64,000 bases of DNA from an uncultured Acidobacteriota bacterium. Its GTDB lineage: Bacteria > Acidobacteriota > Thermoanaerobaculia > UBA5066 > Gp7-AA6. Made by a program: the position numbers and the translations under genes. The notes below the pieces were generated by a model. The model had not been told where the DNA came from. It ran no database searches and saw only the letters and a program-made list of their open reading frames with translations. The stretch covers positions 778,270 to 842,269 of the forward strand of contig CAVTON010000001.1 in assembly GCA_963736455.1 (NCBI GenBank), given 5' to 3'. How positions within the stretch are numbered: position 1 is the first letter of the stretch; the number at the start of each line of letters is the position of its first letter. Below, one piece after another: positions 358 through 21,129 of this stretch.

Positions 358-377
358 TACAATGGAACGAATTCATG
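358..377 (+). promoter_or_regulatory. Candidate -10 element (TACAAT, 358-363) about 11 nt upstream of the ATG at 375; a short-leader or leaderless start for the glycosylation operon
   Basis: TACAAT hexamer in an otherwise GC-rich 145-nt divergent intergenic region between the partial ligase (start 230, minus) and the DUF2298 gene (375, plus). This is sequence-only inference. Confidence 0.25.
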
Positions 378-4535: not shown

Positions 4536-5603
4536 ATGCGATTTTTGATCACCGGCGGAGCCGGTTTCATCGGCTCGAACGCCGCCCGGCGACTCCGTGC
4601 CGAGAAGCACGACGTCGTCGTGCTGGATAGCTTCATGCGCCCCGCTTCCGTCTTCAACCGAGCGTGGCTCGAGGCCCTCGACCCGAAGATCCGGTTGATC
4701 GAAGGCGACGTCCGCGACTCCGCCGCCCTCGCCCGCGTGCTCGCCGAACCCTTCGACGCCGTGCTCCACCTGGCGGGCCAGGTCGCCGTGACGACGTCGA
4801 TCGTGGATCCGGTCACCGACTGGGAGATCAATGCCCTCGGAACGTTCCGCCTGCTCGAGGCCCTGCGCCGGCGATACGCCGACGCCCCGGAGAAGGCGCC
4901 CCTCCTCCTGTATGCCTCGACCAACAAGGTCTACGGCCACCTCTCGATGGGAGAGGTCGTTCGGGAGGGCCGCTGGGACTTCCGCAGCCTGCCCCAGGGC
5001 GTCTCCGAGACCGAGCCGCTCTCCTTCGAGTCGCCGTACGGCTGCTCGAAAGGCGCGGCCGACCAGTACGTCATCGATTACCACCGCAGCTTCGGCCTTC
5101 CGACGGTCGCCCTGAGGCAGTCGTGCATCTACGGTCCCCGCCAGTTCGGCGAGGAAGACCAGGGCTGGGTCGCCTGGTTCGCGCTGGCCGCGGCGTTCGG
5201 CCTCCCGATCACGTTCTACGGCGACGGCCTGCAGGTGCGGGACCTTCTCTGGGTGGACGATCTCGTCGCGCTGTATCTCGCCGCGGCGGCCGACCCGCAG
5301 AAGGTCGCCGGCCGCGCCTACAACGTCGGAGGCGGACCGGCCTTTCGCCTGTCGCTCAAGGAGCTGATGGTCCTCCTCGAGAAGAAGCTCGGCAAGCCGA
5401 TCCCGATCGGATCGGCGCCGGCGCGGCTCGGAGACCAGCCCGTTTTCTACTGCAACGTGGATCGCGCCGCGCAGGACCTCGGCTGGCGTCCCCGCGTTTC
5501 GCCGGACGAGGGCGTCGACCGGCTGCTTTCCTGGATCGGCGGGAGCCGGGAGGAGATCGGCCGCTTCCTGACCCGCAAGGGCCTGAAGATCGCGGCCCCC
5601 TAG
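4536..5603 (+). CDS. NAD-dependent epimerase/dehydratase (extended SDR) family sugar-nucleotide enzyme
   Basis: MRFLITGGAGFIGSN Rossmann motif and YGCSKGAADQY (the catalytic YxxxK); 355 aa. Confidence 0.85.
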   Translation: MRFLITGGAGFIGSNAARRLRAEKHDVVVLDSFMRPASVFNRAWLEALDPKIRLIEGDVRDSAALARVLAEPFDAVLHLAGQVAVTTSIVDPVTDWEINALGTFRLLEALRRRYADAPEKAPLLLYASTNKVYGHLSMGEVVREGRWDFRSLPQGVSETEPLSFESPYGCSKGAADQYVIDYHRSFGLPTVALRQSCIYGPRQFGEEDQGWVAWFALAAAFGLPITFYGDGLQVRDLLWVDDLVALYLAAAADPQKVAGRAYNVGGGPAFRLSLKELMVLLEKKLGKPIPIGSAPARLGDQPVFYCNVDRAAQDLGWRPRVSPDEGVDRLLSWIGGSREEIGRFLTRKGLKIAAP

Positions 5604-8600: not shown

Positions 8601-10526
8601 CCGGGAATCGGCCGCAACCTCGAGCCGTCGGCGTCCGGGATCGACCAGGCGACGGTCTTCGGCCTGTTCTTCTTCCTCGCCCTGGCGTGGTGGCTGGCCG
8701 CCTCCTCCGAGAAGCTCGCGGCGCGCGGCCTGGGCCGCGGGCCCCGGTGGACGATCGGACTCGTCACGTCGGCCGCCCTCGCCGCACTGCTGTTCCTGCG
8801 CCCGAACGTCTTTCTCGGATGCGGCGTCGCGCTCTTCCTCGCCGCGTTCTTCCTGCTCGCCGAGGACCGCGACGATCGCCTCGCCCTCGGCTTCCTCGCG
8901 ACGGCCTTCTTCCTGGTTCTCTTCTGCCAGCGCCTCTACATCTACGACCGGATGAACACGTTCTTCAAGCTCTACCTCGAGGCCTGGCTTCTCTTCGCGA
9001 TCGGCACGGCCGTCCTCGTGTTCCGGCGCAACCGCCGCGGCATCCTGGACCGGTGGATCGTACCGGCGCGGGCGGCGGCGGTCCTGCTCGCCGCCGCGGC
9101 TCTCTTCACGAGCGCCACGGCCGGGCGAGCCGCCGTCAGCCGCCATTTCGCGCCGTACGGCGGACCGACGCTCGACGGCCTCCGTTATCTCGAGACGTTC
9201 CATCCCGGCGAGTCGCGCGCCGTGGCGTGGCTCCGGCGCAGCGTCGCCGGCACGCCGGTCATTCTCGAAGCGCAGGGTCCCTCCTACCAGGACTTCGCCC
9301 GCATCTCGATGCTGACGGGTCTGCCGACCGTCCTCGGATGGGACTACCACGTCAAGCAGCGCGGCAACGCCGAGTCCGAGATCGAGTCTCGCCGCCAGGC
9401 CGTCCGGGCCATGTACTCCGATCCGAACGCGGCCCGGATCGAGAGCCTCCTCGCGCGCTACCGCGTCGGCTACGTGTACGTCGGCTGGCTCGAGAAAAAG
9501 ACGTATCCGCCGGCCGGACTGCAGAAGTTCCGGACGGACCAGGAGCGATTCCAGAGCGTCTACGAGAACCCCGAGGCGCAGGTCTACCGCGTCGTCGGCG
9601 GACCGGCCCAGGACGTGCTCCTCCCGGCCAGGGAGGCGCTGCCGGAAACCTCGGCCGGCGCCCCCGCCCCGCCCGAGGACGAGCCCGAGGAGCGGCCCGC
9701 CATCCAGGCCGCCGCCGAGCCCGGCGCCGCGGCGTGGCCGAACCTGCACGAGCCTCGCGGCGCGGCCGTGGACGACCGCGGCCGGATCTGGATCGCGGAC
9801 TTCGGCCATTCGCGCCTGCGCGTCTTCGATCCCGATGGCGGCTTCCTCGGCGGATGGGGCGGCCGCGGCGCGGGCGAGTTCGGCTTCAAGGAGCTCTGCG
9901 GCGTCGCGATCCGGGGGGACGCGCTGTACGTCGCCGACACCTGGAACGGGCGCATCCAGGCCTTCACCGTCGAGGGGGTCCTGCGCGCCACGGCCGGCGA
10001 GCTCTACGGGCCCCGCGGAATCACGGTCGCCCCGGACGGCCGAGTCTGGGTCAGCGACACCGGCAACCACCGCGTGGTCTCCTTCGACGCGCTCCTCCAG
10101 GACCGGCACTCGTACGGACACAAGGGCGCCGGCCCGGGCGAATTCTCGAGCCCGACCGGCATCGCGGCCTCGCCATCCGGCGAGATCTACGTCGGAGACA
10201 CCGGGAATCGGAGGGTCCAGGTGCTCGGCGCGGACGGGACTCTCCGCGGCGCGTTCCCGTTCCCCGGTTGGGGCCCGAACGTCGAGCCGCACCTCGCGGT
10301 CGACGCGGACGGGACGCTGTGGGCCACGGACCCCGGAACGAACTCCGTCGTGGCGCTCGACTCCTCCGGCAAGCTCCTGCGCCGGATCGACGCCGACGCC
10401 GCCGGACAGAAGTTCTCGAATCCCACGGGTATCGCGATCGACAGGAAAAACCGTATCCTCTATGTCGTCAACTCCGGAAACGCTTCGGTTTCGAAGATTC
10501 CGCTCGGCGAGAGGAGGGCTTCTTGA
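5610..10526 (+). CDS. Giant 1638-aa membrane protein: N-terminal GT-C fold (PMT_2/GT39-like) glycosyltransferase module + DUF2298 'YYY' module + C-terminal NHL-repeat beta-propeller
   Basis: The N-terminus has a DE motif in the first loop (HLHPDERF) and PMT_2-like helices. The middle has LGYYTFGQEMVVF ... INEYPFWSLSFADLHAHVLAIPIF, paralogous to gene 375-2546. The C-terminus (about 9740-10520) has repeated NHL units (GRIWIADFGHSRLRVFDPDG; LYVADTWNGRIQAF; VWVSDTGNHRVVSF; IYVGDTGNRRVQVL). GTG start at 5610 (ATG alternative at 5622). Confidence 0.75.
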   Translation: MPNRMSRDRARAILFLLLAAGAVLRFQGLNWDDGHHLHPDERFISMVEEKLAFPKSAAEYFDAKRSTLDPYNRGEGSFVYGTLPIVVAKVIAPLFGRRGYDGTYLIGRGLSALFDLFTVWLVYRMARRFAHRRASLVAAALSAFCVLGIQLSHFWAVDTFLTTFTAAALLGSVRIAQRKAGWGGWALTGAAIGLAVACKITALALLLPLGVAALAGALREKDGFGAGFLRAVPRVLLALGAAAATIRVFLPHIFLGPSPLSFRLDPRWIEDLRRLKALTSSVAGFPPALQWAGRTVLFPIENLVLWGAGVFFGVTALVALAWASAAVWRRRAWDLAPLCAYVLFLFAYHGLTLVKSIRYLYPAYPALAVLAGVLLSRWIESARRPRLARATALAVVGGTALWAFAFTAIYRRPQSRVTATRWIYAHVPPRERIVNESWDDGLPLPMPGYDPGVYSGPPQLPLFDPDSREKAEILVRSLAETDWVAVTSNRVYANVTRVPDVFPMSIAYYRALFDGSLGFDRAADFTSYPSLGPLRFPDDRAEEQFTVYDHPRVLLFHKTARFSKEAARRLLLSAIPRTPPTMNEWEKWPRSLRRVSAPVRPDHRPEAESSAPSVEPGETAGSSLYAAAAWYLALALVGLLAWPIVWTLFPRLGDRGFGLSRLLGLVFTTYAMTVAVTFHALGNGRRAALGCLAVLAIVSAWIGLRERYDLARFLRENRRALLQSEIVFAVGFLLFLGLRALNPEIYWGEKPMDFSILNILVRTRSLPASDPWLAGAPLGYYTFGQEMVVFLTFLTNLSTRFTFNLAFGFLGGTILQGAYSLARNWGGRLRAGIAGAGLTLLLGNLSGLREWLIHKRALDWDYFWATSRVVKDTINEYPFWSLSFADLHAHVLAIPIFLAFATAALHLVRLHMAPATGTRPRLVAAALLGFLGAAQALTNAWDVPLLAGLLAVTALAAALAAQRFTVAGVGRALGALAISAASGYLLARPLWVRAGGAPGIGRNLEPSASGIDQATVFGLFFFLALAWWLAASSEKLAARGLGRGPRWTIGLVTSAALAALLFLRPNVFLGCGVALFLAAFFLLAEDRDDRLALGFLATAFFLVLFCQRLYIYDRMNTFFKLYLEAWLLFAIGTAVLVFRRNRRGILDRWIVPARAAAVLLAAAALFTSATAGRAAVSRHFAPYGGPTLDGLRYLETFHPGESRAVAWLRRSVAGTPVILEAQGPSYQDFARISMLTGLPTVLGWDYHVKQRGNAESEIESRRQAVRAMYSDPNAARIESLLARYRVGYVYVGWLEKKTYPPAGLQKFRTDQERFQSVYENPEAQVYRVVGGPAQDVLLPAREALPETSAGAPAPPEDEPEERPAIQAAAEPGAAAWPNLHEPRGAAVDDRGRIWIADFGHSRLRVFDPDGGFLGGWGGRGAGEFGFKELCGVAIRGDALYVADTWNGRIQAFTVEGVLRATAGELYGPRGITVAPDGRVWVSDTGNHRVVSFDALLQDRHSYGHKGAGPGEFSSPTGIAASPSGEIYVGDTGNRRVQVLGADGTLRGAFPFPGWGPNVEPHLAVDADGTLWATDPGTNSVVALDSSGKLLRRIDADAAGQKFSNPTGIAIDRKNRILYVVNSGNASVSKIPLGERRAS

Positions 10527-13216
10527 GCGAACCCGCGGCGGCGGCCTCGGACCCTGCACGGCTGTCGGCCCGGGTCCTCCTGTTCATCGCGACGCTGGCC
10601 GTCGCCGCCGCCCTCACGCGCTTCTGGGCGCTCGGGGACCGGCCGCTTCACCACGACGAGTCGATCCATGCCTACCAGTCGTACACGCTCTCGAAGGGCG
10701 GCGACTGGCGCTACGACCCGGCCTACCACGGTCCGTTCCTCTACTACCTCAACGCCCTCGTCTACAAGATTGCGGGCGCCTCGAACGTCACGGCGAGAAC
10801 GATGCCGGCCATCTTCGGCCTGATCCTGATCGCGTTCGCGTGGCCCCTGAGGCGGTGGATCGGGAACGGCGCGGCGGCCGTCTATGCCGTCTTCGTCCTG
10901 CTCTCGCCCCACTTTGCCTACTTCTCGCGCTTCATCCGGGAGGACCTCTATTCGCTCGTGTTCACTCTCGGCACGATCGTCGCCTTCCAGCGGTTCCTCG
11001 AAACGGACCGCTCGAAGTGGCTGATGCTCTCGGCCACGGCGTTCGCGTTCGCCGGCGTGACCAAGGAGAACGCCTACATGACGGGCGTTCTCTTCGTCGT
11101 CTACGGCGTGTGGTGCGCCCTCCGCGGCGCGGGCACCGCGGAAGGACCCCGCCCGGGCCAGGCCGTGGGACGGGCGCTATCGTGGGTGCTGGAGCGGATC
11201 GTCCCGATTCTTTCGGCGGCGCTGCTCTTCCTGGTCATCTGGGCTGGCATGTACTCGGCCTTCGGGAAGTACCCGGGCGACTGGCTCGCGATTCCGAAGG
11301 CGATCAAGTACTGGATGGGCCAGCACTCGATCGCCCGGATCCCCGGTCCCTGGTACTACTACTTCCCGCAGCTCTTCTTCTACGACACGGCGATCGTCTT
11401 CGCCGCCCTCTTCGCATTCTCGCGGCGCCAGTGGAAGACGGATCCGTTCCTGCGCGTGCTCGCGCGCTCGGCGGGGCCGATCGTCGCGTACCTCGTCCTG
11501 CGCCGGTTCGTTCCGGTGTTCGCGCCCCGTGCGATGGTCTGGATTGCGGTCATCGTCGTCGCCACCCTGATCCTGACACTGCGGCGCCCGAGCGCCGAGC
11601 CCGGCGGCCTGACGCCCTTCGTGCAGTTCATCGCCTTCTGGACCGTGGGCTCGCTCGCGATCTATGGCTGGGCCCGCGAGAAGGTGCCCTGGCTCACGGT
11701 CCACCCGCTGCTTCCCCTGACCATGCTCGCCGGGCTCGGCGTCGTCCGGCTCTGGTCGCAGCGCCGGCGCGCCTGGGCCGCGATCGCCCTCGCCGTCACC
11801 ATGCTCTTCGCCGTGGTCAACACGCGCGGGGCGTATCTGGCCTGCTTCCGGTACGGCGCGCACGACGTCGAGAAAGAGCCCGGGCACGCCGAGCTGCTCG
11901 CCTACGTTCAGACGACGAGGGACCTCGTCCGCGCGCTCCGGTCGGTCGAGATCGCGAAGGCGCGCATCCCCGCCGGTCAGCCGGTCGTGACCGTCGTCGG
12001 CGAGGCCGTGTGGCCGCTGACCTGGTACCTGAGGGACGACAACGTCACGTGGGCCTCGCGCATCGATCAGGCCTCGACACCCGTCATCATCGCCGACTGG
12101 GACCCGGAAGGGACGCTCGAAAAGCAGCTCGCGCCCAAGTACGACGCCAAACGGGTGCCGATCCGAGCCTGGTGGTTCCCGGACCCGCTCAAGGAGGGAA
12201 ACCTCGAGCGCCCCACGGTCGGCGACTGGCTGAGGCTATGGTGGGACCACCAGATCTGGGGAACGATCGGTTCCCAGGACGCGACGTTCTTCGTCCGCAA
12301 GGACCTCGCGGGCTCGGGTCCTCTCGAGCCGCTCCAGTTGACCGTGCAGGACACGTCCTCGCGCGACTACCCGGGCGAGGCGACGGAGCTGCCCGCGCCG
12401 CGTTCGATCGGGGTGGCGGGCAACGGACCGGCCCAGTTCGCGGAGCCGCGCGGCGTGGCGACGGACCCGAGCGGCAACGTCTACGTCGCCGACACGAAGA
12501 ACAGCCGCATCGAAGTCCTGGACGCCGCCGGCAACTTCCTGCGCGCGTTCGGGACGAAGGGCCCCGGTGACGGCCAGCTGAACGAGCCGTGCGGCGTCGC
12601 CGTCGGCCCCAATGGCGACGTCTACGTGGCCGACACGTGGAACCATCGCGTCGCGCGCTTCGGACCGGACGGGCAGTGGCGGGGCGCATGGGTCGATCCC
12701 GAGCGGGGCTTCTTCGGCCCGCGCGGCCTCACGCTCTCCGGCGGCTCGCTCTACGTCTCGGACACCGGAAACAAACGCATCGTCCGCTTCGACACCGCGA
12801 CGGGATCGGTGACCGGCCGCTGGGGCGGCGCCGGCTCCGGGCCGAGCCAGTTCGTCGAGCCCGTCGGTCTCGCGGCGGACCCGTCCGGCCGCATCTACGT
12901 CGCCGACACCGGAAACCACCGGATCCAGGTCTTCGACGCGGACGGCAAGTTCCTTCGCCAGTTCCCGGTCTTCGGCTGGAAAGACTTCTACACCGAGCCG
13001 TACCTCACGATCGGGCCATCCGACGCCGTGTTCGCGACCGACTCCTGGAAGGGGCGGATCGCGCAGTACGACGCGTCGGGGGCGCTCGTCCGCTCCTACA
13101 AGGCGGACGGACTGAAGCGTCCGACCGGGATCACGCGGGACGCCTTCGGACACGTGATCGTCACCGACCGCGACATGAACCGCGTCTTCATCTGGCCGAT
13201 CGACGCGTTTCGCTAA
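10523..13216 (+). CDS. TIGR03663-like GT-C fold (PMT_2 family) membrane glycosyltransferase fused to a C-terminal six-bladed NHL-repeat domain
   Basis: The only start downstream of the in-frame stop (TGA 9832-9834) is TTG at 10523, preceded by GGAGG and overlapping the upstream stop (TTGA). HHDESIHAYQSYTLSKGGDWRYDPAYHGPFLYY has the GT-C DE motif. From about 12440 there are NHL repeats (NVYVADTKNSRIEVLD; VYVADTWNHRVARF; LYVSDTGNKRIVRF; IYVADTGNHRIQVF). The upstream part of the 2850-aa ORF (4664-10522) is an alternative-frame artefact. Confidence 0.75.
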   Translation: MSEPAAAASDPARLSARVLLFIATLAVAAALTRFWALGDRPLHHDESIHAYQSYTLSKGGDWRYDPAYHGPFLYYLNALVYKIAGASNVTARTMPAIFGLILIAFAWPLRRWIGNGAAAVYAVFVLLSPHFAYFSRFIREDLYSLVFTLGTIVAFQRFLETDRSKWLMLSATAFAFAGVTKENAYMTGVLFVVYGVWCALRGAGTAEGPRPGQAVGRALSWVLERIVPILSAALLFLVIWAGMYSAFGKYPGDWLAIPKAIKYWMGQHSIARIPGPWYYYFPQLFFYDTAIVFAALFAFSRRQWKTDPFLRVLARSAGPIVAYLVLRRFVPVFAPRAMVWIAVIVVATLILTLRRPSAEPGGLTPFVQFIAFWTVGSLAIYGWAREKVPWLTVHPLLPLTMLAGLGVVRLWSQRRRAWAAIALAVTMLFAVVNTRGAYLACFRYGAHDVEKEPGHAELLAYVQTTRDLVRALRSVEIAKARIPAGQPVVTVVGEAVWPLTWYLRDDNVTWASRIDQASTPVIIADWDPEGTLEKQLAPKYDAKRVPIRAWWFPDPLKEGNLERPTVGDWLRLWWDHQIWGTIGSQDATFFVRKDLAGSGPLEPLQLTVQDTSSRDYPGEATELPAPRSIGVAGNGPAQFAEPRGVATDPSGNVYVADTKNSRIEVLDAAGNFLRAFGTKGPGDGQLNEPCGVAVGPNGDVYVADTWNHRVARFGPDGQWRGAWVDPERGFFGPRGLTLSGGSLYVSDTGNKRIVRFDTATGSVTGRWGGAGSGPSQFVEPVGLAADPSGRIYVADTGNHRIQVFDADGKFLRQFPVFGWKDFYTEPYLTIGPSDAVFATDSWKGRIAQYDASGALVRSYKADGLKRPTGITRDAFGHVIVTDRDMNRVFIWPIDAFR

Positions 13217-13223: not shown

Positions 13224-15458
13224 ATGTCGAGCGTCCGCCGTTCCGACCCTGCCGCCGTAGATCCGCACCACTGGGCGTTGCTCGCCGCGACCGCGCTCCT
13301 CGCGTCCGTCGGTCCGGCGATCGTGGTCGCGGACCGCTGGTTCTCCCGGCGCAACACCGTCACGTTCCTGACCGCATTCGCGGATCGCTTCCCGTGGCTC
13401 GCCGACATCAACCTCCCTGTCTACGCGGCCGTCTTCGCGGCGGCGTTCGTGATTCTCGTCGCGCTGGCGGGACTTCGCCCTTCGGCGGGCCTTTCCGCCT
13501 GGAGGAACCGGATCGCCTTCGCCGAACGGCCGCGGCGCCCGAGTGCCCGCGGCCGCCAGCGGTCGCTGGCGACCTGGGTGGCCCTGTGCGGAGGAGCGGC
13601 AGCCACGCTGCTCTTCGCCCGCGTCGTGGTCGCGGGACGGATCCCCGGTCCGGGTCTCCTCACGGCGCTCGCGGCCCTCGGATTCGGCATGCTGCTGCGC
13701 GAGGTCTCGCTCGGCGCCCTCCGCCGTTTGTGGAACCGCAAGCGCGCCAATGTCGTCTCCATCGTCGCCGCCCACGTCACCACCATCCTCGCCTTCGCGA
13801 GCGTCCACACGTATCACCGCTTCGAGCGGCCGCTGATCGCCCTCGCCGTCCTGGCCGCCGCGAATCTCGCGGCACGCTGGAAGAAGACGGGACCCATCCC
13901 GCTGCTCGTTCTGGCCGCCGTCGTCCTCTATCTGTGGCGAATCGATTCCTGGTGGTTTGCGCTCGTGGGCGACGAGTACCGCAACTTCGACATCGCCTCG
14001 CTGATCCTGAAGCAGCACGACCGCGCCTACGTGCTTTCGCACCTCTTCCAGCTCGAAGGCGGACTCGAAGGCCTCGACCCCTACGCCTGTTCCCTCGTGC
14101 AGGCGGCCTCGATGCGACTGCTCGGCGTCAACAGCTTCGGCTGGAGGTTCAGCAGCCTCTACTGCGCGGCCCTGGCGCTGCCTTTCTTCTTCCGCTTCCT
14201 GCGGACCTTTCTCTCGCGGCGCGCGACGCTCGCGACGACCGTCGTGATGGCCGCGTCGCACTACATCATCGCCTTCGGCAAGATCGGCTACGACAAGTTC
14301 CAGGCGTATCTCGCCATGGCAATGCTCCTCGCCGCGGCGGCGTGCGCCGTGCGGACGCGCCGCATGATCGCCTTCGTGGGACTGGGATTCTCGGCGGCCC
14401 TCTGCTTCTACGTCTATCCCGCGGCGCTCTACGTCCTCCCGCTGCCCGCCTTTCTCCTGCTTCTCTACGTCCCCCCGAAGAGCCGCGCGGCGCTGGCCCG
14501 ATGGGGGATGGCGGGCCTCGTCTGCGCGCTGACGATCTTCCCTCTCCCCTTCCAGCCGACCTATTTCCCCGGCAAGAGGCCCGGCACCGTCTACTACAAC
14601 CCCGAGCTCATGAGCTCGACGAGCCGGCTCGTCCGCCATTTCTGGTCGAACGGCGTCTACGCCGCCTATTCGCCGGTCCTCCTCGGCTCCGAGGACCACT
14701 TCGTCACCAGCTCCTACCTCGACCCGCTGGCGGGGGCCCTCTTTCTCGTCGGAATCGCCTCGGCGCTCTGGCTCGTCCGGCGGGACCGCTTCGTCGCGTT
14801 TCTCGTCGTCAGCCTCGGATTCCTGCTGCTGCTCGGCGGCACGACGCACGACCGCGAATACCCGCCCACGACGCGTTTCTTCCTGCTGGTGCCCCTCTTC
14901 TGCATGATCGCGACCGCCGGGCTGTGGCGCCTCTTCGGACTGGCCGGCGAGAGCCGCTTCTCGACTCGGGCGCCCCGCGTCGCCCTGGCCGTGGTCCTTC
15001 TCGCCATCGTGACCCTCAACGTCGTCCAGGCCCATGTCGTGTCGGTCCGGCGCAGCGACGGCTACCAGGTCCTCGATCCCCTCGTGGTCCGTCTCGCGAC
15101 GCGCGCCGAAACCCTGCCTCCGGGACAACGGCCCCGGCTCGTCATGCTGGCGCCGGCCGCCACCGACGGCGACGGCATCGTCGTGATGCTCGGCGTCTAC
15201 GATCTGAAGGAGTCGGCCAGGCGGTTCGCGACCGTCGGGCTCGGCGCCGATGACTCGGGATTCCCCGAGCCGGCTCTCCTTTCGGAGCGGGACGCGGCGA
15301 TCTTCGTGGCTCCGCAGGTCCCCGCGCGGGCCCGGGCGCGCCTCGAGGGCGCGCTCGGTGCGGCCGGACGGGTCCCCTGCGCCGTGCGCACGACGACGGG
15401 CCAGGAGCGCTTCCGGCTCTGGACGTTTCCGGGCACGCCTTCGCTCTGCGCGGACTGA
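13224..15458 (+). CDS. Polytopic membrane protein, probable GT-C fold glycosyltransferase (ArnT/PMT_2-like)
   Basis: 744 aa with more than 10 predicted TM helices and an early-loop VGDEYRNF motif; last gene of the plus-strand island, 8 nt after the previous stop. Family assignment is by motif resemblance only. Confidence 0.55.
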   Translation: MSSVRRSDPAAVDPHHWALLAATALLASVGPAIVVADRWFSRRNTVTFLTAFADRFPWLADINLPVYAAVFAAAFVILVALAGLRPSAGLSAWRNRIAFAERPRRPSARGRQRSLATWVALCGGAAATLLFARVVVAGRIPGPGLLTALAALGFGMLLREVSLGALRRLWNRKRANVVSIVAAHVTTILAFASVHTYHRFERPLIALAVLAAANLAARWKKTGPIPLLVLAAVVLYLWRIDSWWFALVGDEYRNFDIASLILKQHDRAYVLSHLFQLEGGLEGLDPYACSLVQAASMRLLGVNSFGWRFSSLYCAALALPFFFRFLRTFLSRRATLATTVVMAASHYIIAFGKIGYDKFQAYLAMAMLLAAAACAVRTRRMIAFVGLGFSAALCFYVYPAALYVLPLPAFLLLLYVPPKSRAALARWGMAGLVCALTIFPLPFQPTYFPGKRPGTVYYNPELMSSTSRLVRHFWSNGVYAAYSPVLLGSEDHFVTSSYLDPLAGALFLVGIASALWLVRRDRFVAFLVVSLGFLLLLGGTTHDREYPPTTRFFLLVPLFCMIATAGLWRLFGLAGESRFSTRAPRVALAVVLLAIVTLNVVQAHVVSVRRSDGYQVLDPLVVRLATRAETLPPGQRPRLVMLAPAATDGDGIVVMLGVYDLKESARRFATVGLGADDSGFPEPALLSERDAAIFVAPQVPARARARLEGALGAAGRVPCAVRTTTGQERFRLWTFPGTPSLCAD

Positions 15459-16254: not shown

Positions 16255-17037
16255 TCAGTCCGGCCAGTAGAGCCCGAGCGCCTTGGCGAGAAAGATCGCC
16301 ATCTGCCGGCGATTGACGGGGTTGTCCGGACAGTAGTTCCCGCCGCCGCAGCCGCCCGTGATTCCCGAGGCGGCGAGCGCCTCGATGTACTGGTACCCGA
16401 AGTCGGTCGTCGGCACGTCGCCGAACGTCGGCGTGGCCGGCGCCGGGCTGACGACGGTGTGCCACCAGACCTCGACGGAGCCGAAGTTGACGGAGCCGTC
16501 CACCGGCGCGCCGTCCTGCTCGTAGACGTCGAGCTGGAGGCTCGTGGCCGCGTTCGTCAAGAGCTGGTATCCCAGGGTGCTCGGGCTGTAATCCATGGCG
16601 CAGGGCGTGGTCGGGCCATGGGCGGAACTGACGAAGTCCTCGACCGTCACGTACGTCGAGCCGTCGGCCGGCTGGAAGTAGACCGCCACGCCGAGGTTCG
16701 CCCCCGCCTGATCGCAGGAACCCAGGCCGATCTGATCGATGACGGCGCCCGCAGGAAGAATGAGCGGCGCCGTGTTGTCGGCCGGGATCGCCAGGTCATA
16801 GCGAAAGAACGTATCCACATCCGAGGAGTAGCCCACTCCCGAGTCGATCGGGACAAAGCCGACGGACGAGACGGTCGACACGTTGGTCGTTCCGCCGAAC
16901 CCCGCAGGGCCCGCCGCCCTCGCACTCGGCTTTTGACGGACGCCGATCCGGCTGTGGACATGGGTCCGATGAGAGGCGCCGAGAGCGACGCCCGAGAGCA
17001 GAAGGGAGACCCCGACCGCCAGAATCTTTTTGGACAC
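16255..17037 (-). CDS. Secreted protein with C-terminal SLH-like (S-layer homology-like) domain
   Basis: Signal peptide. The C-terminus TPTFGDVPTTDFGYQYIEALAASGITGGCGGGNYCPDNPVNRRQMAIFLAKALGL fits the SLH pattern (F-DV...I..L...GI..G...P...VTR.Q.A.FL). It is a paralog of 17158-17955. Confidence 0.6.
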   Translation of the reverse strand: MSKKILAVGVSLLLSGVALGASHRTHVHSRIGVRQKPSARAAGPAGFGGTTNVSTVSSVGFVPIDSGVGYSSDVDTFFRYDLAIPADNTAPLILPAGAVIDQIGLGSCDQAGANLGVAVYFQPADGSTYVTVEDFVSSAHGPTTPCAMDYSPSTLGYQLLTNAATSLQLDVYEQDGAPVDGSVNFGSVEVWWHTVVSPAPATPTFGDVPTTDFGYQYIEALAASGITGGCGGGNYCPDNPVNRRQMAIFLAKALGLYWPD

Positions 17038-17157: not shown

Positions 17158-17955
17158 CTACTCCCACTGGAGGCCGAGGGCCTTCGCCAGAAACACCGCC
17201 ATCTGACGCCGGGTCAGCGTCGCATCGGGGCAGTAGTTGCCGCCGCCGCATCCCGCCGTGATCCCGGAGCTGACCAGGGCTTCGATGTACTGGAAGCCCG
17301 GATCCGTCGTCGGGACGTCGCCAAAGGTGGGCGTCATGGGCGCCGGGCTGACTTGCAGAACGTAGTGGATGATGGCCCCGGCAATCCCCGTCGAGCCGTC
17401 GATGTCGGGAACGAAGACCACCAGGACGAACTGATTGTTGTTATTGTCGACCGTGAAGGGCGTGGTCAGCGAGGCCGAAAATCCGCCGCATCCGCCGCTG
17501 CCGGAGCTGGACACGGAGGTGATCAGCGTGGCGCCCGTTCCGTCCCAGCTCGTCGAGACGAGGTTCATGATGACGTCGTCGGTGGCGTTGGTGTCGCAGG
17601 CGTCGAGCTCTACACTCGTGATCGACGCGCCGGAGGGCAAGTGAGGCGAGGCGACGAAAGCGCTTCCTGCATTCGCCGTGGGATACCGGGCGTAAATGAG
17701 CCCAACCTGGGAGAGGTCGCTGTAGGTCGTGTCCGTATTGGCCGGGGAGAATTCGGTGGAGGACACCCGATAGAAGCTCGTATAGGTGGTGCCGTAAGTC
17801 TGGGGAAGTCTCGGAGGGGCGGCGATCGACGGAGCGGACGGTTGAGCCAGAATGGTCGGCGCACCCGCCGCGAGATTCTGTCCCTGGAGGCCCGAGACCG
17901 CAAGAAGCGACAGAAAGGCCGAAGCGAAGACAGCCCTCTTCACGGATATCGACAT
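17158..17955 (-). CDS. Secreted protein with C-terminal SLH-like domain (paralog of 16255-17037)
   Basis: Signal peptide; C-terminal 55 aa nearly identical to the neighbouring paralog (MTPTFGDVPTTDPGFQYIEALVSSGITAGCGGGNYCPDATLTRRQMAVFLAKALGL); AAGGAG-like RBS (aaggagaaaaaagatg). Confidence 0.6.
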   Translation of the reverse strand: MSISVKRAVFASAFLSLLAVSGLQGQNLAAGAPTILAQPSAPSIAAPPRLPQTYGTTYTSFYRVSSTEFSPANTDTTYSDLSQVGLIYARYPTANAGSAFVASPHLPSGASITSVELDACDTNATDDVIMNLVSTSWDGTGATLITSVSSSGSGGCGGFSASLTTPFTVDNNNNQFVLVVFVPDIDGSTGIAGAIIHYVLQVSPAPMTPTFGDVPTTDPGFQYIEALVSSGITAGCGGGNYCPDATLTRRQMAVFLAKALGLQWE

Positions 17956-18036: not shown

Positions 18037-19395
18037 TCAGCTCCGGAACACCTTCTCCTCGGTCCCGTCCAGCCAGCGATCCACGAGCTCGACGCCCTGC
18101 ATGAGCGAGTGATCCTGGTTGCCGATCTCGTACTTCCACGAGCCGAAGCGGCCTCGCGAGAAGATCCCGCGAGGCTCGAGATAGGCGTGGATCGTCTCGA
18201 GCGCCGGATTCCGATCGACCGACGGGATCGGGTACGAGTGGCCGGCGTGGATGAGAAAGACCGTCTCGATCAGCGGAAGATCGGACGCTTGAAGGATTCC
18301 CTCGGCGACGAGGCCGTCCACGACGGCCTGGCCGAAGTCGCCCTCGGGCAGCGGCTTGAACTTCGAGTAGGACGTTTCGGTCAGGACCGAGAAGTACTTC
18401 GACGTGTCGCCGCCCGGAACGATCTCGGGAGAGTAGTTGGACAGGTACGTCATCCGGTAGAACGGCGTCTTCGGGTTCGGAAAGTAGATCCAGTTCTTGT
18501 CCGACGGCGAGGGGCGGCGCAGGCCGACGCCGGCCGAGAACAGCCGGTTGAAGAGGAGCGACTGCGCCGCCGCCCGGACCTTCGCCGGCGCGTGCGTCAG
18601 GCGCGCGACGAACGCGTCCAGGGGAATCGTCGTCAGCAACCGGTCGTAAGAGCGCGTCGTTCCGTCGGTGAACGCGATCTCGCGCTTCTCCTCGTCCACT
18701 GAGATCGCGCGCTTGTGGAAACGGATGCGGTCGTCGCCGAGAAACGGCACGACTCCCTTCCAGAGCCCGAGCGTTCCGCCGTGGAGGGGGTAGCCGAACT
18801 TCGCGTTGGGACCCCAGTCGGTCGTCTTCGGCACGACCGTCGTCTCGATCGCCTTGCGCCAGTCGACGACCGACACGCGCTCGGCGATCCAGTAGTAGCC
18901 CATCTCCTTCAGGGGCGTCGCCCAGACCTTGAAGTTGTAGGGGTTCATGAAGTGCTTCGCGACGCCCGATCCGAACTTCGCGAGGACCCACTCCTCGAAG
19001 TTGCGAAAGGCGCGGTCCTTGTCGATCGTCTGCGACTCGACGAGGCCGATCAGGCACTCGAGCATCGCTTTCTCGGGCAGCGACGAAAGGTGGTTCTGAA
19101 ACGGATACCGGACGTACTTGTCCTCGAACTTGATCCAGCTCTCGCGGTCGATCCAGCGAATCTGATCGCCGAGGACCTTCCCGAGGAAATCGTTGAAGTA
19201 CTTGTACCCCGAAAAGATGATGTGGCCCGACACGTCCCACGTCCATCCCTTCGGGTCCTTGAAGCTCGTGGCGAGGCCGCCGACCTGTCCCGACCTCTCG
19301 AAGATCTCGAAAGCGTCCTCGCCGCGCTCGCGGAGCCGGTACGCGGCGCCGAGGCCCGTCGGGCCCGCGCCGAGAATGACGATGCCGCCGCTCAC
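18037..19395 (-). CDS. glf: UDP-galactopyranose mutase, eukaryote-type (UDP-Galp to UDP-Galf)
   Basis: ILGAGPTGLGAAYRL FAD motif; GHIIFSGYKYFNDFL; YPFQNHLSSLP; FEEWVLAKFGSGVAKHFMNPYNFKVWA; C-terminal SRGRFGSWKYEIGNQDHSLMQGVELVD. These closely track the fungal/kinetoplastid-type UGM signature blocks. Confidence 0.85.
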   Translation of the reverse strand: MSGGIVILGAGPTGLGAAYRLRERGEDAFEIFERSGQVGGLATSFKDPKGWTWDVSGHIIFSGYKYFNDFLGKVLGDQIRWIDRESWIKFEDKYVRYPFQNHLSSLPEKAMLECLIGLVESQTIDKDRAFRNFEEWVLAKFGSGVAKHFMNPYNFKVWATPLKEMGYYWIAERVSVVDWRKAIETTVVPKTTDWGPNAKFGYPLHGGTLGLWKGVVPFLGDDRIRFHKRAISVDEEKREIAFTDGTTRSYDRLLTTIPLDAFVARLTHAPAKVRAAAQSLLFNRLFSAGVGLRRPSPSDKNWIYFPNPKTPFYRMTYLSNYSPEIVPGGDTSKYFSVLTETSYSKFKPLPEGDFGQAVVDGLVAEGILQASDLPLIETVFLIHAGHSYPIPSVDRNPALETIHAYLEPRGIFSRGRFGSWKYEIGNQDHSLMQGVELVDRWLDGTEEKVFRS

Positions 19396-20195
19396 TGGGC
19401 GGCCCGTCCCTTGGCGACGAGCCGCCGGAGCTGCTCGGCCTGCTTCATCTCGGCCCGGAGCTCGAAGAGGTAGCGGATCACGCGTGCGATCGTGCCCAGC
19501 ATCTTGAACGGACGATGGATGGACTGCCCGGCCTCGCGCGGGAAGTGCCGCACCACGACCTCGGTCACCTTCCAGCCGGCGATCCGGCAGCGCACGAAGA
19601 TCTCGTCGCCGACGAAGTTGATCCGGTGCTTGATCTCGATGCGGCGCGCGACGTCCCGCCGGAAGGCCCGGCAGCCGGCGTTGATGTCGTGGAGCGGCGA
19701 GCCCAGGATCCAGTGCGACAGGACGCGAAGGCCGCGCGAGAGGATGAGCCGTCCGAGCGGGTCGTGCCGGACCTTCTTCCAGCAGAAGACGACGTCGGCG
19801 CCGCGGTCGATCGCGTCGAGAAAGAGCGGCGCGTCGGCCATCGTGTGCTGGCCGTCGCCGTCGACGACCATCACGACCTCGCCCGGCACGTTCTGCAGCG
19901 CCGTCTCGGTCGCCACCGCGTAGCCCTTGTTGCCGTCGTGGTGGACGACGGAAACGCGCGGATCCTTCTTCGCGAGCTCTTCGGCGATCTCCCCCGTCCG
20001 GTCCCGGCTGCCGTCGTTGACGACGACGACGTGCCAGGTGAGGTCGGGGATCGCGGAGAGCGACGCGACGGCTTCGGCGACCGTCTTCGCGATCAGCTCT
20101 TCTTCGTTGTAGGCCAGGAACCCGACTCCGAAGCGCACCTTCGGCTCCGGCCGAGGGGGCGTCTGGACGCCCCCGACTTCGCGATCAGCGGCCAT
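19392..20195 (-). CDS. GT2 polyprenyl-phosphate sugar synthase (DPM1/GtrB-like)
   Basis: FLAYNEEELI ... VVVVNDGSRDRTGEIAEEL ... VVDGDGQH: canonical GT2 DXD region of dolichol/bactoprenol-phosphate hexose synthases. The stop overlaps the glf start by 4 nt. Confidence 0.8.
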   Translation of the reverse strand: MAADREVGGVQTPPRPEPKVRFGVGFLAYNEEELIAKTVAEAVASLSAIPDLTWHVVVVNDGSRDRTGEIAEELAKKDPRVSVVHHDGNKGYAVATETALQNVPGEVVMVVDGDGQHTMADAPLFLDAIDRGADVVFCWKKVRHDPLGRLILSRGLRVLSHWILGSPLHDINAGCRAFRRDVARRIEIKHRINFVGDEIFVRCRIAGWKVTEVVVRHFPREAGQSIHRPFKMLGTIARVIRYLFELRAEMKQAEQLRRLVAKGRAAQ

Positions 20196-21129
20196 AGATG
20201 ATCCATCCTGCAGTTGCCACCCAGCCCATCACGATGACCAGGAGCCACGGATCGTCCACGAGGAGGGCCTGGGTGGGGCTGCCCCCTCCGCCGCGGCGGT
20301 ACACGAGGTGAACGTAGCGCGCGAGGCCAAGAACGACGAACGGGATCGTCGCCGCGAGCGTCTGGCCGCGATAGCGCGCGACCGTCTCCGGGATGACGCT
20401 GTACGCGCTGTACGCCGACGCCGTCGCCAGGCCCGTGACGATGAAGAGATAGTCGAGCCCCTCGGCGCCGTAGGAGGCGAGTGCCGGCCGGTGCTCGGAG
20501 GAGGTCCGGTGGCCGGCGTGATGGAACTCCCACTGCCGCTTTCCGGCGACGAGGAAGAGCGCGAGCAGGTAGGCGCAGACGATCAGGAAGAGCGACGGGA
20601 AGACTTCCGCCAGCGCCGCCCCGGCGAGGGCGCGCAGCGGCATCCCCGCCGCGACGATCAGCGCCTCGAGGAAGGGAATGCCCTTGAGGACGAAGGAATA
20701 CGCGAGCATGAGCGCGGCGTACGCGGCGCACCACCGGCCGAACGCCGGCCGGAGGAGGAACGCAGCCCCGAGGCCTCCGACCTCGAGGACGACTGCACCC
20801 GCCACCGCGGCCGGGACGGACAATCGGCCGGACGCGAGCGGCCGGTGGCGCTTCTCGGGATGCGCGCGGTCGCGGTCGCGGTCCATGACGTCGTTGACGA
20901 GGTAGATGCCGCTCGCGATCGCGCTGAAGGCCGCGAATCCCGCCGCGGCGAGCACCCACCCTTCGGCCGCCTTGAGCGCTCCGCCGAAGAGAAACGGCAG
21001 CGGCAGGACGAGATTCTTGATCCACTGCTTCGGCCTCGCCGCCGCCGCGAGCGCGAGCAGAGATCGATCGGCGTGCGACCCTTCGGCCGGCACGACGCGA
21101 CCGGACGATGTCGCTGCCATTTCTCTCAT
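20185..21129 (-). CDS. UbiA-family prenyl-phosphate phosphoribosyltransferase (decaprenyl-phosphate 5-phosphoribosyltransferase/DPPR synthase-like)
   Basis: PKQWIKNLVLPLPFLFGG and YLVNDVMDRDRDRAHPEKRHRPLASGRLS (NDxxDxxxD followed by HP.KR.RP.A.G) match the Rv3806c-type DPPR synthase signature rather than UbiA/MenA/DGGGPS. 8-9 TM helices. The stop overlaps the GT2 start by 11 nt. Confidence 0.75.
   Translation of the reverse strand: MREMAATSSGRVVPAEGSHADRSLLALAAAARPKQWIKNLVLPLPFLFGGALKAAEGWVLAAAGFAAFSAIASGIYLVNDVMDRDRDRAHPEKRHRPLASGRLSVPAAVAGAVVLEVGGLGAAFLLRPAFGRWCAAYAALMLAYSFVLKGIPFLEALIVAAGMPLRALAGAALAEVFPSLFLIVCAYLLALFLVAGKRQWEFHHAGHRTSSEHRPALASYGAEGLDYLFIVTGLATASAYSAYSVIPETVARYRGQTLAATIPFVVLGLARYVHLVYRRGGGGSPTQALLVDDPWLLVIVMGWVATAGWIIYGR

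Follow-up and report, generated by a model that had tools for sequence, protein, structure and literature searches.

The minus strand at positions 18037-21129 of the stretch of DNA analysed here (64,000 nucleotides in full, hereafter the window), from the metagenome-assembled genome of an uncultured soil Thermoanaerobaculia (Acidobacteriota), encodes a UbiA-family homologue, a family 2 glycosyltransferase (GT2) and a eukaryote-class UDP-galactopyranose mutase (UGM). A sequence-only reading had taken this trio for an arabinogalactan-like pathway, and the question raised by the locus is whether that is so, or whether these enzymes would supply other sugars for another purpose.

Structure and conservation of the locus

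The three genes are genuine and closely packed (Table 1), and their coordinates had been given exactly; the UbiA-family reading frame overlaps that of the GT2 by 11 nt (20185-20195), the GT2 frame overlaps that of the UGM by 4 nt (19392-19395, GTGA), and GC3 values of 0.88-0.93 across the trio give a coding signature that fits a genome of 70% GC. In 80 of 80 loci from related species the genes recur in identical order, all on one strand, wherever the contig extends far enough, which is an association far beyond chance. Apart from the trio, only GT-C families are conserved across the loci, and no further Leloir glycosyltransferase is conserved near the trio.

Table 1. Features of the trio and its neighbourhood (positions within the window)
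Feature	Position	Strand	Details
chlor_Arch_YYY / DUF2298 polytopic membrane protein	375..2546	+	DUF2298 1.2e-96; TIGR03662 501 bits
Extended SDR nucleotide-sugar epimerase/dehydratase (GalE/RmlB-like)	4536..5603	+	Epimerase PF01370 2.8e-52
Fusion of PMT_2-type GT-C, chlor_Arch_YYY (DUF2298) and NHL propeller	5610..10526	+	1638 aa; PMT_2 7.7e-15, DUF2298 4e-80, NHL 1.8e-35
TIGR03663/Agl23-family GT-C-type membrane protein (PMT_2) with C-terminal NHL beta-propeller (GTC897)	10523..13216	+	PMT_2 8e-13, NHL 1e-44
PMT_2-type GT-C membrane protein	13224..15458	+	744 aa; PMT_2 1.9e-6; 11 predicted TM segments
Secreted SLH-domain protein, paralogue of the next	16255..17037	-	SLH 6.4e-7
Secreted Ser/Thr-rich protein with single C-terminal SLH domain	17158..17955	-	SLH PF00395 1.3e-7
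Eukaryote-class UDP-galactopyranose mutase homologue	18037..19395	-	452 aa, GTG start
Soluble GT2 of polyprenyl-phosphate glycosyltransferase type (Pren-P GT; DPM1/GtrB/ArnC-like)	19392..20195	-	267 aa, ATG start
UbiA-family polyprenyl-phosphate 5-phosphoribosyltransferase homologue (PPPRS/DPPRS-like)	20185..21129	-	314 aa, ATG start, ~6-9 TM helices

GT-C enzymes had been placed near the trio and do flank the operon. GTC897 scores 323.5 bits with TIGR03663 (cut-off 126), and almost every related locus with sufficient flanking sequence has a homologue of it in convergent orientation to the trio. The 1638-aa fusion (TIGR03662, 444 bits, above cut-off) is kept beside the trio in relatives, and the 744-aa protein has homologues in a subset of these loci. 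We predict that GTC897 is a user, possibly a flippase, of lipid-linked donors. The SDR protein, which matches the RmlB (2e-47) and GalE (6e-39) models under their cut-offs, could serve either in UDP-Gal supply or in epimerisation of a lipid-linked pentose.

Downstream of the UGM gene, after a gap of 81 bp with no terminator-like site within it, lies the gene for the Ser/Thr-rich SLH protein, which is possibly co-transcribed with the trio and is followed by a strong hairpin (17132-17109); a terminator hairpin of the same sequence follows its paralogue (16228-16211). This SLH protein, which is confined to closer relatives, might speculatively be considered a glycosylation acceptor. The earlier description of an organism with SLH proteins and a porin is borne out by the two SLH proteins (16255-17955) and by an OprB-type porin (60913-62262).

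The UbiA-family protein

Membership of the UbiA family (PF01040, 1.1e-22) and a public annotation as '4-hydroxybenzoate polyprenyltransferase' would suggest a conventional aromatic or lipid prenyltransferase of the quinone, heme O or ether-lipid kind, with no role in sugar metabolism, and scores under the curated NCBIfam cut-offs for DPPRS (182 against 234, and 180 against 207) point the same way. We consider this very improbable, since the top three NCBIfam matches are all decaprenyl-P phosphoribosyltransferase models (1.8e-53 for the best, 6.1e-53 for another), while the named quinone, heme O and DGGGP models reach only 1e-6 or weaker and the best other UbiA-family model 3e-12. The HAD-UbiA model PRK08238 also matches (8.6e-47), and the one strong match in the PDB is Rv3806c (8j8j, 2.9e-34, 37% identity). 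The genes of the operon and their neighbours are, moreover, all related to glycosylation. Model scores thus group the protein with the phosphoribosyltransferases and away from the quinone and heme O enzymes; a position among the latter had been named beforehand as one that would speak against the assignment.

The motif of decaprenyl-phosphate 5-phosphoribosyltransferase (NDxxDxxxD-HP.KR.RP) is present as described, in a form identical to that of Rv3806c (N79-D80-x-x-D83-x-x-x-D87-x-x-H90-P91-x-K93-R94-x-R96-P97). Nine of the 12 residues of the Rv3806c PRPP site are kept (R32, K38, Y76, N79, D83, K93, R96, Y144 and K149), and the kept positions include the phosphoribose-specific K28 and Y70 of Rv3806c; the Rv3806c equivalents of K38 and Y76 bind ribose 5-phosphate, and prenyltransferases do not conserve them. 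M141 and M163 deviate from this site, with Rv3806c Q135, which contacts ribose O3, replaced by an invariant Met and Y157 also by Met. Judged by sequence, the protein is a member of the phosphoribosyltransferase group, and not a quinone, heme O or DGGGP enzyme.

The mutase

Assignment of the 452-aa protein to the fungal/kinetoplastid type was correct, its closest PDB matches being the enzymes of Trypanosoma cruzi (TcUGM; 1.6e-95, 41.7% identity) and Aspergillus fumigatus (AfUGM; 5e-94), with the bacterial type absent among its PDB matches. Loss of flavin- or UDP-binding residues would have counted against it, and all those named are intact. Each of ten named TcUGM residues is kept (TcUGM numbering in brackets): G57 (G61), H58 (H62), R173 (R176), N197 (N201), Y304 (Y317), R314 (R327), Y388 (Y395), R416 (R423), Y422 (Y429) and N426 (N433). 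Compared with the eukaryotic UGMs (T. cruzi, A. fumigatus, Leishmania; PDB 4dsg, 3uka), the protein shares ~42% identity and all catalytic and UDP-Gal-binding residues, including the Asn of the 200s flap and, as Q100, the eukaryote-specific uracil-binding Gln, but it is bacterial, has 452 residues and lacks some of the eukaryotic insertions.

It is one member of an extensive prokaryotic radiation of ~450-aa proteins, which the first reading had not noticed and none of which is annotated as a UGM, but only as protoporphyrinogen or FAD oxidoreductases. Of its homologues, L084 adjoins a GlfT2-like glycosyltransferase and P0265 carries a fused NDP-sugar epimerase, so that the bacterial members of the eukaryote class look like real UGMs.

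The glycosyltransferase and its sugar

The GT2 (PF00535, 1.9e-28) had been described as DPM1/GtrB-like, and its best profile and PDB matches are of the ArnC/GtrB/DPMS type. Its full-length NCBIfam matches are to Pren-P GTs only (Dol-P-hexose transferase at 9e-23, PgfS, ArnC, AglJ and PpgS), and its best matches in the PDB are ArnC (5.5e-15), PfDPMS (3e-14) and GtrB, with GlfT2 absent among the PDB hits. The DxDxQ hallmark is present (D112-G-D114-G-Q116), and eight of nine residues compared with ArnC are kept, among them, as ArnC equivalents, D61, N89, R149, R220 and S225, with R128 replaced by K140. No TM segment is predicted. We propose that this is a candidate polyprenyl-P-hexose (Galf) synthase, for which sequence suggests the type of reaction and gene context only the sugar.

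Adjacency alone does not fix the nucleotide sugar, and UDP-Galf could be used by a Galf transferase encoded at another genomic locus. The operon might then join separate steps, with polyprenyl-P-mannose or -glucose of the usual kind as the GT2 product, and with the UGM feeding a distant cytoplasmic Leloir galactofuranosyltransferase. Most homologues of the eukaryote-class UGM do reside in ordinary GT4/GT2 polysaccharide clusters, the GlfT2-like neighbour mentioned above would fit such an arrangement, and the best family match of the GT2 is a haloarchaeal Dol-P-hexose (Glc/Gal) transferase, albeit at 80 bits against an equivalog cut-off of 375. We nonetheless regard this arrangement as doubtful, because the 80 related genomes conserve no other Leloir enzyme near the trio, and because adjacency of a GT2 and a mutase recurs in unrelated lineages.

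An unexpected observation was that related small GT2s of other phyla adjoin either mutase class, eukaryote or classic bacterial. Small Pren-P-GT-like GT2s lie beside eukaryote-class UGMs in L086, L089, L091, L093 and L095-L097, and in another 12 loci beside classic Glf (PF03275); in two syntenic Cytophagales loci (L097 and L098) the GT2s are 74% identical and the mutases of different classes. Mutase-linked GT2s account for 18 of 26 scorable loci in one clade and none of 20 outside it (Fisher p = 6e-7); no mutase is nearby in 29 of 39 scorable GT2 loci of a metagenome sample. Polytopic membrane proteins, some of them PMT_2 (GT-C family), flank the mutase-linked GT2s, and in one locus (L124) a fusion of GT2 and PMT_2-like (GT-C-like) domains lies next to Glf, which again argues against separate steps. 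This combination of either UGM class with membrane-protein flanks and a fusion points, through gene context, to an undescribed polyprenyl-P-galactofuranose synthase. In a neighbour-joining tree, however, the window GT2 forms a long branch that falls outside the main clade of mutase-linked GT2s, which makes orthology to that clade uncertain and favours the separation of steps.

Is this an arabinogalactan pathway?

If the first reading were right, the UbiA enzyme would start a decaprenyl-P-arabinose-type route, and the UGM and GT2 would build a galactofuranan, as in Corynebacterineae. The cluster Rv3806c-Rv3809c of M. tuberculosis likewise unites ubiA, a GT2 (glfT2) and glf, and counts in its favour. 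Against the mycobacterial DPA/arabinogalactan genes (Rv3806c UbiA, Rv3807c, GlfT2, Glf, DprE1/E2, Emb/Aft), the window shares a DPPRS homologue of 37% identity with both the NDxxDxxxD and HPxKRxRP motifs, encoded together with a UGM and a GT2, and GT-C end users close by. However, its UGM belongs to the eukaryote class and not to that of the mycobacterial enzyme, its GT2 of 267 aa is a Pren-P GT and not a processive GlfT2, and its GT-C enzymes are of Agl23/PMT_2/YYY and not Emb/Aft types. DprE1 and DprE2, for which a genome-wide search had been suggested, a DPPR phosphatase, a GlfT1/GlfT2-type galactan polymerase and an Emb/Aft-type enzyme are all absent from the 64-kb window, where the sole FAD_binding_4 protein (62265-63998) is of BBE/VAO type; nor are DprE1, DprE2 or a PAP2 phosphatase conserved in the 80 relatives. 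With no DprE1/E2, Rv3807c or Emb/Aft at this locus, nothing indicates arabinose, and where pentofuranose systems lack DprE1/E2, the sugar delivered is ribose or xylose. An arabinogalactan pathway is therefore unlikely; the three enzyme assignments stand, but the pathway named for them lacks its partners in the window.

The trio had also been said to supply the donor types used by GT-C enzymes. GT-C enzymes use sugars linked to lipid phosphate; UDP-Galf is not a GT-C donor, and the UGM could be connected with the GT-C proteins only by way of the GT2.

Proposed pathway

We put at roughly 70% the probability that the trio supplies lipid-linked ribose and galactofuranose donors for extracytoplasmic or cell-surface glycosylation by membrane enzymes; the best reading of the operon products would be polyprenyl-P-ribofuranose(-5-P) and polyprenyl-P-hexose. 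First, as homology and active site suggest, the UbiA-family enzyme would transfer 5-phosphoribose from PRPP to polyprenyl phosphate, the reaction of Rv3806c and Citrobacter ORF15, and dephosphorylation of the resulting polyprenyl-P-ribofuranose-5-P would yield a lipid-linked pentofuranose. Second, the UGM, with its catalytic residues kept, would convert UDP-galactopyranose to UDP-galactofuranose. Third, the small soluble GT2 would transfer a sugar from its UDP form to polyprenyl phosphate; because the conserved module has no other Leloir-type transferase, we propose UDP-Galf as its donor and polyprenyl-P-Galf as its product. Fourth, the convergent GT-C proteins (Agl23-like/PMT_2, YYY and NHL fusions) would, to judge from the conserved neighbourhood, take up these lipid-linked sugars on the outer side of the inner membrane and transfer them to an acceptor, for which the SLH-domain surface proteins encoded nearby are one possibility. 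A phosphatase, a lipid-pentose epimerase and a recognisable small flippase are neither present in the 64-kb window nor conserved in relatives.

Comparison with known systems

In Haloarcula hispanica, Agl22 is a Dol-P-hexose synthase and Agl23 a flippase-associated GT-C-like protein, and the pairing of TIGR03662 and TIGR03663 genes has been described for archaea and Chloroflexi. The window resembles this arrangement in the best family match of its GT2, far under the equivalog cut-off though this is, and in having TIGR03662 (YYY) proteins beside GTC897; it differs in its bacterial host, its NHL propeller fusions and the linked UGM and PPPRS. In the GtrA/GtrB/GtrX and Pgf (Streptococcus mutans PgfS/PgfM1/PgfE/PgfM2) systems, a DxDxQ Pren-P GT similarly makes a lipid-P-sugar for a GT-C enzyme, and the Pgf cluster includes an epimerase and has surface proteins as its targets. 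However, the window GT2, like PpgS, Ppm1 and human DPM1, is without a TM anchor, the locus has no GtrA-like flippase, and the proposed sugar is a furanose.

The combination had been thought unusual outside the Actinobacteria, a view that looks overstated, for phosphoribosyl-lipid synthases are already known elsewhere. In the three-component pentofuranose system of Citrobacter youngae O1/O2, ORF15 is a PPPRS-PRP, ORF14 a MATE flippase and ORF12 a GT-C enzyme of GT136 (Kelly et al. 2024, PMC11127046). Both have a phosphoribosyl-lipid synthase of the UbiA family, a homologue of Rv3806c, that is coupled genetically to GT-C enzymes carrying additional periplasmic binding domains. A GalE-like SDR is an optional part of the cluster, and the sugar is added outside the cytoplasm, as is predicted for the window. 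The window locus lacks the fused HAD phosphatase domain and the MATE flippase, and its GT-C proteins belong to the Agl23/PMT_2/YYY families and not GT136, but its operon adds a Pren-P GT and a UGM, which predict a further lipid-linked donor, a hexose. The system is best explained as a doubled form of three-component extracytoplasmic glycosylation, a variant of a known scheme rather than an arabinogalactan pathway.

Gene content and conservation of the operon

The three minus-strand genes that encode a UbiA-family protein, a GT2 glycosyltransferase and a UDP-galactopyranose mutase (UGM) are real, and the sequence-only reading named their enzymes correctly but gave them the wrong pathway label. 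Our preferred reading, which we hold with a probability of about 0.7, is that the trio supplies donors to GT-C enzymes for glycosylation outside the cytoplasm, namely a pentofuranosyl lipid derived from phosphoribose and a hexosyl lipid. The window has a GC-content of about 70%, and the three ORFs have GC3 values of 0.88-0.93, the strong third-position bias of real genes; the overlaps of 11 nt and 4 nt, from which a single operon had been proposed, are present exactly as claimed. The operon starts with the UbiA gene, since the gene 5' of it (21205-22527, plus strand) is divergent and has a good ribosome-binding site. Frame-specific GC3 and the ribosome-binding site favour this plus-strand gene over a 114-aa minus-strand ORF (21126-21470) that shares 4 nt with the start of the UbiA gene, and we dismissed that ORF as its shadow. 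At the other end, there is no terminator-like site between the UGM gene and the next gene, which encodes an SLH-domain protein, and a strong hairpin comes only after that gene, so that it may be co-transcribed with the trio.

A scan of species-representative genomes with a UGM alignment returned 80 loci, all of the Thermoanaerobaculia lineage; the scan matched peptide patterns specific to this clade and is therefore silent on wider distribution. The order UbiA-GT2-UGM, on one strand, is kept in all 80 wherever the contig extends far enough. When all ORFs of these loci were clustered, the trio proved to have GT-C membrane proteins as its sole conserved companions, most loci having two of them; neither another Leloir glycosyltransferase nor a phosphatase, an epimerase or a small flippase is conserved across the set. 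Among the matches listed, homologues of the UGM and UbiA proteins are at least 64% identical and belong to the same clade (Thermoanaerobaculia/Acidobacteriota MAGs); the public labels of the close ones (70-97% identity) are 'FAD-dependent oxidoreductase', 'protoporphyrinogen oxidase', 'UbiA prenyltransferase family' and '4-hydroxybenzoate polyprenyltransferase'.

Gene neighbourhood

A set of GT-C and associated genes occupies the beginning of the window, including GTC1638 and GTC897, two large membrane proteins with NHL domains (see table). The OprB-family porin and the SLH-domain proteins bear out the description of a porin- and SLH-bearing organism. An identical GC-rich hairpin, CGGCCTTCGGGCCGGCCG, comes after each of the two SLH genes (16228-16211 and 17132-17109); both genes are present only in closer relatives, and their products are possible acceptors of the glycosylation system. 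Two conserved proteins of 189 aa and 408 aa lie close to glycosylation genes in related loci. Divergent from the UbiA gene is a tight set of amidotransferase, radical SAM and FAD enzyme genes, found together in approximately 27 closer Thermoanaerobaculia loci only. The rest of the window contains Ku/LigD, glycogen genes, a giant kinase, the porin and other genes unrelated to the glycosylation system.

Features of the window relevant to the operon and its surroundings
Feature	Position	Strand	Remarks
chlor_Arch_YYY/DUF2298 protein	375-2546		TIGR03662, 501 bits (cut-off 300)
Methyltransferase	within 375-15458
GalE/RmlB-like SDR	within 375-15458
GTC1638, PMT_2 + YYY + NHL fusion	5610-10526	plus	1638 aa; TIGR03662, 444 bits (cut-off 300)
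GTC897, membrane domain + NHL propeller	10523-13216	plus	897 aa; TIGR03663 'flippase activity-associated protein Agl23', 323.5 bits (cut-off 126)
PMT_2 protein	within 375-15458		744 aa
Lipoprotein-like protein	15496-16065	minus	189 aa; no family match; conserved in many related loci
Small secreted Ser/Thr-rich SLH proteins, paralogous pair	16255-17037, 17158-17955	minus	single C-terminal SLH-like domain each
UGM	18037-19395	minus	452 aa ORF
GT2	19392-20195	minus	267 aa ORF
UbiA-family protein	20185-21129	minus	314 aa ORF
Asparagine-synthase-like amidotransferase, RaSEA-like radical SAM, QhpG/halogenase-like FAD enzyme	21205-25062	plus	440, 320 and 522 aa
Secreted protein	25045-26271	minus	408 aa; no family match; conserved in many related loci
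Ku and multidomain LigD	27601-31071	minus (Ku), plus (LigD)	divergent non-homologous end-joining pair
Ser/Thr kinase domain + AAA_16 ATPase + two SBP_bac_5 domains	46267-51885	plus	1872 aa
OprB-family carbohydrate porin and adjoining BBE/VAO-type flavin oxidase	60913-63998		oxidase runs past window end

The UbiA-family protein

The UbiA-family protein, which matches Pfam UbiA, had been assigned to the decaprenyl-phosphate 5-phosphoribosyltransferase (DPPRS) type rather than to the quinone or ether-lipid prenyltransferases, and the profile scores agree: NCBIfam models for decaprenyl-phosphate phosphoribosyltransferase match best (1.8e-53, 6.1e-53 and 6.4e-41), followed by PRK08238, of the HAD-UbiA fusion type (8.6e-47), while quinone, heme O, chlorophyll and DGGGP models all score 3e-12 or weaker. 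The protein does not, therefore, fall within the quinone or heme O prenyltransferases by these scores. Among solved structures the only strong match is Rv3806c of M. tuberculosis (8j8j; 2.9e-34, 37% identity), with chlorophyll synthase at 7e-4. Its scores lie below the curated equivalog cut-offs of NCBIfam (181.9 bits against 234, 179.8 against 207 and 140.7 against 474), and so it is a divergent relative rather than an annotated equivalog.

The PRPP- and Mg-binding residues of Rv3806c have been shown by Gao et al. 2024 (PMC10994848), and we mapped twelve positions of this site (R22, K28, Y70, N73, D77, K87, R90, Q135, Y138, K143, Y157 and K208) onto the protein. Nine are kept (R32, K38, Y76, N79, D83, K93, R96, Y144 and K149), including K38 and Y76, the equivalents of two Rv3806c residues that bind the 5-phosphate of ribose and that ordinary prenyltransferases do not conserve (PMC10994848). 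The differences are Q135, which contacts ribose O3 in Rv3806c (PMC10994848) and is replaced by M141, a methionine invariant in the clade; Y157, replaced by M163; and K208, replaced by P215 with R214 adjacent. Judging from these alignments, this divergent DPPRS relative is predicted to form polyprenyl-P-ribose-5-P from PRPP.

The mutase and its family

The 452-aa flavoprotein matches only generic families in Pfam (Amino_oxidase, NAD_binding_8) and has no match to PF03275, the family of the classic Glf. Its best structural matches are the UGMs of T. cruzi (1.6e-95, 41.7% identity) and A. fumigatus (5e-94), with no bacterial UGM among PDB matches at E<=1e-3, and the eukaryotic (fungal/kinetoplastid) type proposed earlier is thereby upheld. 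All the catalytic and substrate-binding residues named for the T. cruzi enzyme (G61, H62, R176, N201, Y317, R327, Y395, R423, Y429 and N433; PMC4192007) are conserved, as G57, H58, R173, N197, Y304, R314, Y388, R416, Y422 and N426, so that there is no loss of flavin- or UDP-binding residues among those named. The uracil-binding glutamine, described as absent from bacterial UGMs (review PMC3624792), is present as Q100.

In the literature that we searched the two classes of UGM are treated as 'eukaryotic' and 'prokaryotic' (PMC3624792), and searches for bacterial members of the eukaryotic class returned nothing relevant. Nevertheless, this class is not a bacterial oddity. An exhaustive HMMER search of 1.84 billion cluster representatives gave 985 clusters at E<=1e-30, and about 40 proteins of roughly 450 aa, with 38-48% identity, outscore the solved eukaryotic UGMs against the window protein. 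Names were found for few of the representatives; named members come from Actinomycetota MAGs and Paenibacillus, and include a fusion with an NDP-sugar epimerase (P0265, 798 aa) and a tandem double UGM from the eukaryote Carpediemonas membranifera (P0241, 1551 aa). Every named homologue that we saw carried an oxidoreductase or protoporphyrinogen oxidase label. The homologues occur in bacterial glycan clusters: at one locus (L084, 2563-5786) a 48%-identical UGM gene overlaps that of an ABC-transporter ATPase and converges on a gene for a GlfT2-like galactofuranosyltransferase (PF17994), an arrangement that looks like a bacterial galactan-type ABC-dependent pathway. This GlfT2-like neighbour, the P0265 fusion and the replacement by classic Glf described below lend indirect support to a predicted UDP-Galp/UDP-Galf interconversion.

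The GT2 protein

The third enzyme was described as a DPM1/GtrB-like polyprenyl-P-sugar synthase, and the comparisons concur. It has a GT-A GT2 domain (PF00535, 1.9e-28), and its full-length NCBIfam matches are exclusively polyprenyl-phosphate glycosyltransferases (Pren-P GTs): the haloarchaeal Dol-P-hexose transferase, PgfS, ArnC, AglJ and PpgS. Matches in PDB are ArnC, PfDPMS and GtrB, with GlfT2 absent among them. The DxDxQ motif, a hallmark of the Pren-P GT group (PMC10821137), is present as D112-G-D114-G-Q116, aligned to 100-DADLQ-104 of ArnC. Equivalents of ArnC D48, N77, D100, D102, Q104, R137, R205 and S210 are all kept, those of the acceptor-phosphate and UDP sites being D61, N89, R149, R220 and S225, and ArnC R128 is conservatively replaced by K140. 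No transmembrane segment is predicted in the protein, and membrane anchoring by such helices is thus without support; soluble Pren-P GTs exist, such as PpgS, Ppm1 and human DPM1.

The arabinogalactan reading

An arabinogalactan-like pathway would be expected to leave other traces, and these are lacking: no DprE1, DprE2, DPPR phosphatase, GlfT1/GlfT2 or Emb/Aft was found in the 64 kb window, nor was any conserved in the 80 related loci. PAP2 and HAD phosphatases, and GtrA, MATE and SMR flippases, are likewise absent from the window. Its only FAD_binding_4 protein (62265-63998) was considered as a DprE1 and rejected, being of the BBE/VAO type and not DprE1-like. With DprE1/E2 not found, arabinose is not predicted.

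Coupling of GT2 and mutase genes

The sequence-only reading had also offered UDP-Galf as a donor for GT-C enzymes, but these require lipid-phosphate donors. As the GT2 is the sole enzyme of the conserved module that could consume UDP-Galf, we looked for coupling of such proteins to mutases elsewhere. One locus (L086) has a 249-aa GT2, with ArnC as its best family match, whose gene shares 4 nt with that of a eukaryote-class UGM of 44% identity. Another (L089) groups a UGM with a radical SAM gene, a 232-aa GT2 and, in convergent orientation, a PMT_2 GT-C; this GT2 is 30% identical to that of the window (E 1e-26), has a DSDGQ motif and best matches ArnC, GtrB and DPMS.

A metagenome scan seeded with the GT2s of coupled loci produced a separate set of 80 loci, in which the GT2 adjoins a eukaryote-class UGM in five cases and a classic Glf (PF03275) in 12, mostly within 100 bp. 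Two Cytophagales loci, L097 and L098, share one gene order (polytopic protein, acyltransferase, GT2, mutase, large secreted protein, MBOAT) and their GT2s are 74% identical, yet the mutase is eukaryote-class in one (L097, 8836-10227) and a classic Glf in the other (L098, 4702-5805). Such a clear instance of non-orthologous displacement argues that both mutase classes fill one and the same role, on which the GT2 relies. L097 also encodes a 675-aa fusion of an SDR epimerase/dehydratase and a GT2 (2022-4049).

In a neighbour-joining tree, mutase-linked GT2s are concentrated in one clade, where they make up 18 of 26 scorable loci; a second large clade has none among its 20 (Fisher p = 6e-7). GT-C proteins are too divergent for tblastn, which, queried with those of the window, detected none in the metagenome loci; GT-C-like neighbours were sought instead by TM count, Pfam and phmmer. 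Polytopic membrane proteins flank almost every mutase-linked GT2, and some of them can be recognised as PMT_2. At L124 (6826-9057) a single 743-aa protein combines a GT2 domain of Pren-P-GT-like type with a 10-TM domain; the latter is homologous both to the polytopic neighbours of other Glf-GT2 pairs (phmmer 1e-42) and to a protein of PMT_2 type (1.9e-13). Taken together, these observations suggest a widespread system of Glf/UGM, Pren-P GT and GT-C with polyprenyl-P-Galf as its lipid intermediate.

Adjacency alone cannot prove the donor specificity of a GT2, and most sampled Pren-P GTs have no mutase nearby. The window GT2 forms a long branch that falls outside the main clade of mutase-linked GT2s, of whose members it is only a possible orthologue. 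We therefore propose only tentatively, from gene context, that the window GT2 and the small mutase-linked GT2s of Cytophagales and other lineages are polyprenyl-phosphate galactofuranose synthases; that the sugar moved by the window enzyme is Galf we consider slightly less probable than an even chance.

A proposed mechanism and its implications

In the model that we propose, the UbiA-family enzyme would supply the phosphoribose-derived pentofuranosyl lipid, while a UGM of either class and the GT2 would together make polyprenyl-P-Galf. This lipid-linked hexofuranose would serve GT-C enzymes as the donor in extracytoplasmic galactofuranosylation. To be complete, the scheme would further need a phosphatase, a flippase and an acceptor. 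In Thermoanaerobaculia the genes of this Galf-lipid system would share their operon with that of a phosphoribosyl-lipid synthase. A full-text literature search for lipid-linked Galf under its obvious compound names returned no paper, and such a donor would be one not described before.

If correct, the model would add a lipid-monophosphate route for extracytoplasmic Galf, beside the cytoplasmic UDP-Galf transferases. Bacteria would turn out to be a large reservoir of the 'eukaryotic' UGM class, labelled only as oxidoreductases or protoporphyrinogen oxidases, which would bear on genome annotation and on the origin of the eukaryotic enzyme. It would also provide a first handle on the envelope glycans of Thermoanaerobaculia, a soil lineage of Acidobacteriota represented here by uncultured MAGs only. 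Humans lack galactofuranose and pentofuranoses, which are frequent in the surface antigens of microbes, and the way these sugars reach the surface therefore matters for vaccines and drug targets.

Comparison with known systems

Agl22 of Haloarcula hispanica is reportedly a Dol-P-hexose synthase. The title of Lu 2020, as cited in PMC11182771, links Agl22 and Agl23 of this species to how lipid-linked intermediates are made and used; Agl23 is a putative flippase for Glc-/Gal-P-dolichol, and in vitro the purified protein can flip a lipid-linked oligosaccharide (PMC11182771).

Kelly et al. 2024 (PMC11127046) described a widespread three-component system, composed of a polyprenyl phosphoribose synthase of the UbiA family, a flippase and a GT-C, which adds ribofuranose outside the cytoplasm, or xylofuranose or arabinofuranose if an SDR epimerase or DprE1/E2 is present (PMC11127046). 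A DPPRS homologue outside the Actinobacteria, which the sequence-only reading thought unusual, is therefore not so in itself. On our preferred reading the trio is a variation on these systems, and, should the model hold, their principle would extend to Galf, beyond hexopyranoses and pentofuranoses. The window locus differs from them in having neither a fused phosphatase nor a MATE flippase and in using Agl23/PMT_2/YYY GT-C proteins, but the main difference is that its operon also carries a Pren-P GT and a UGM.
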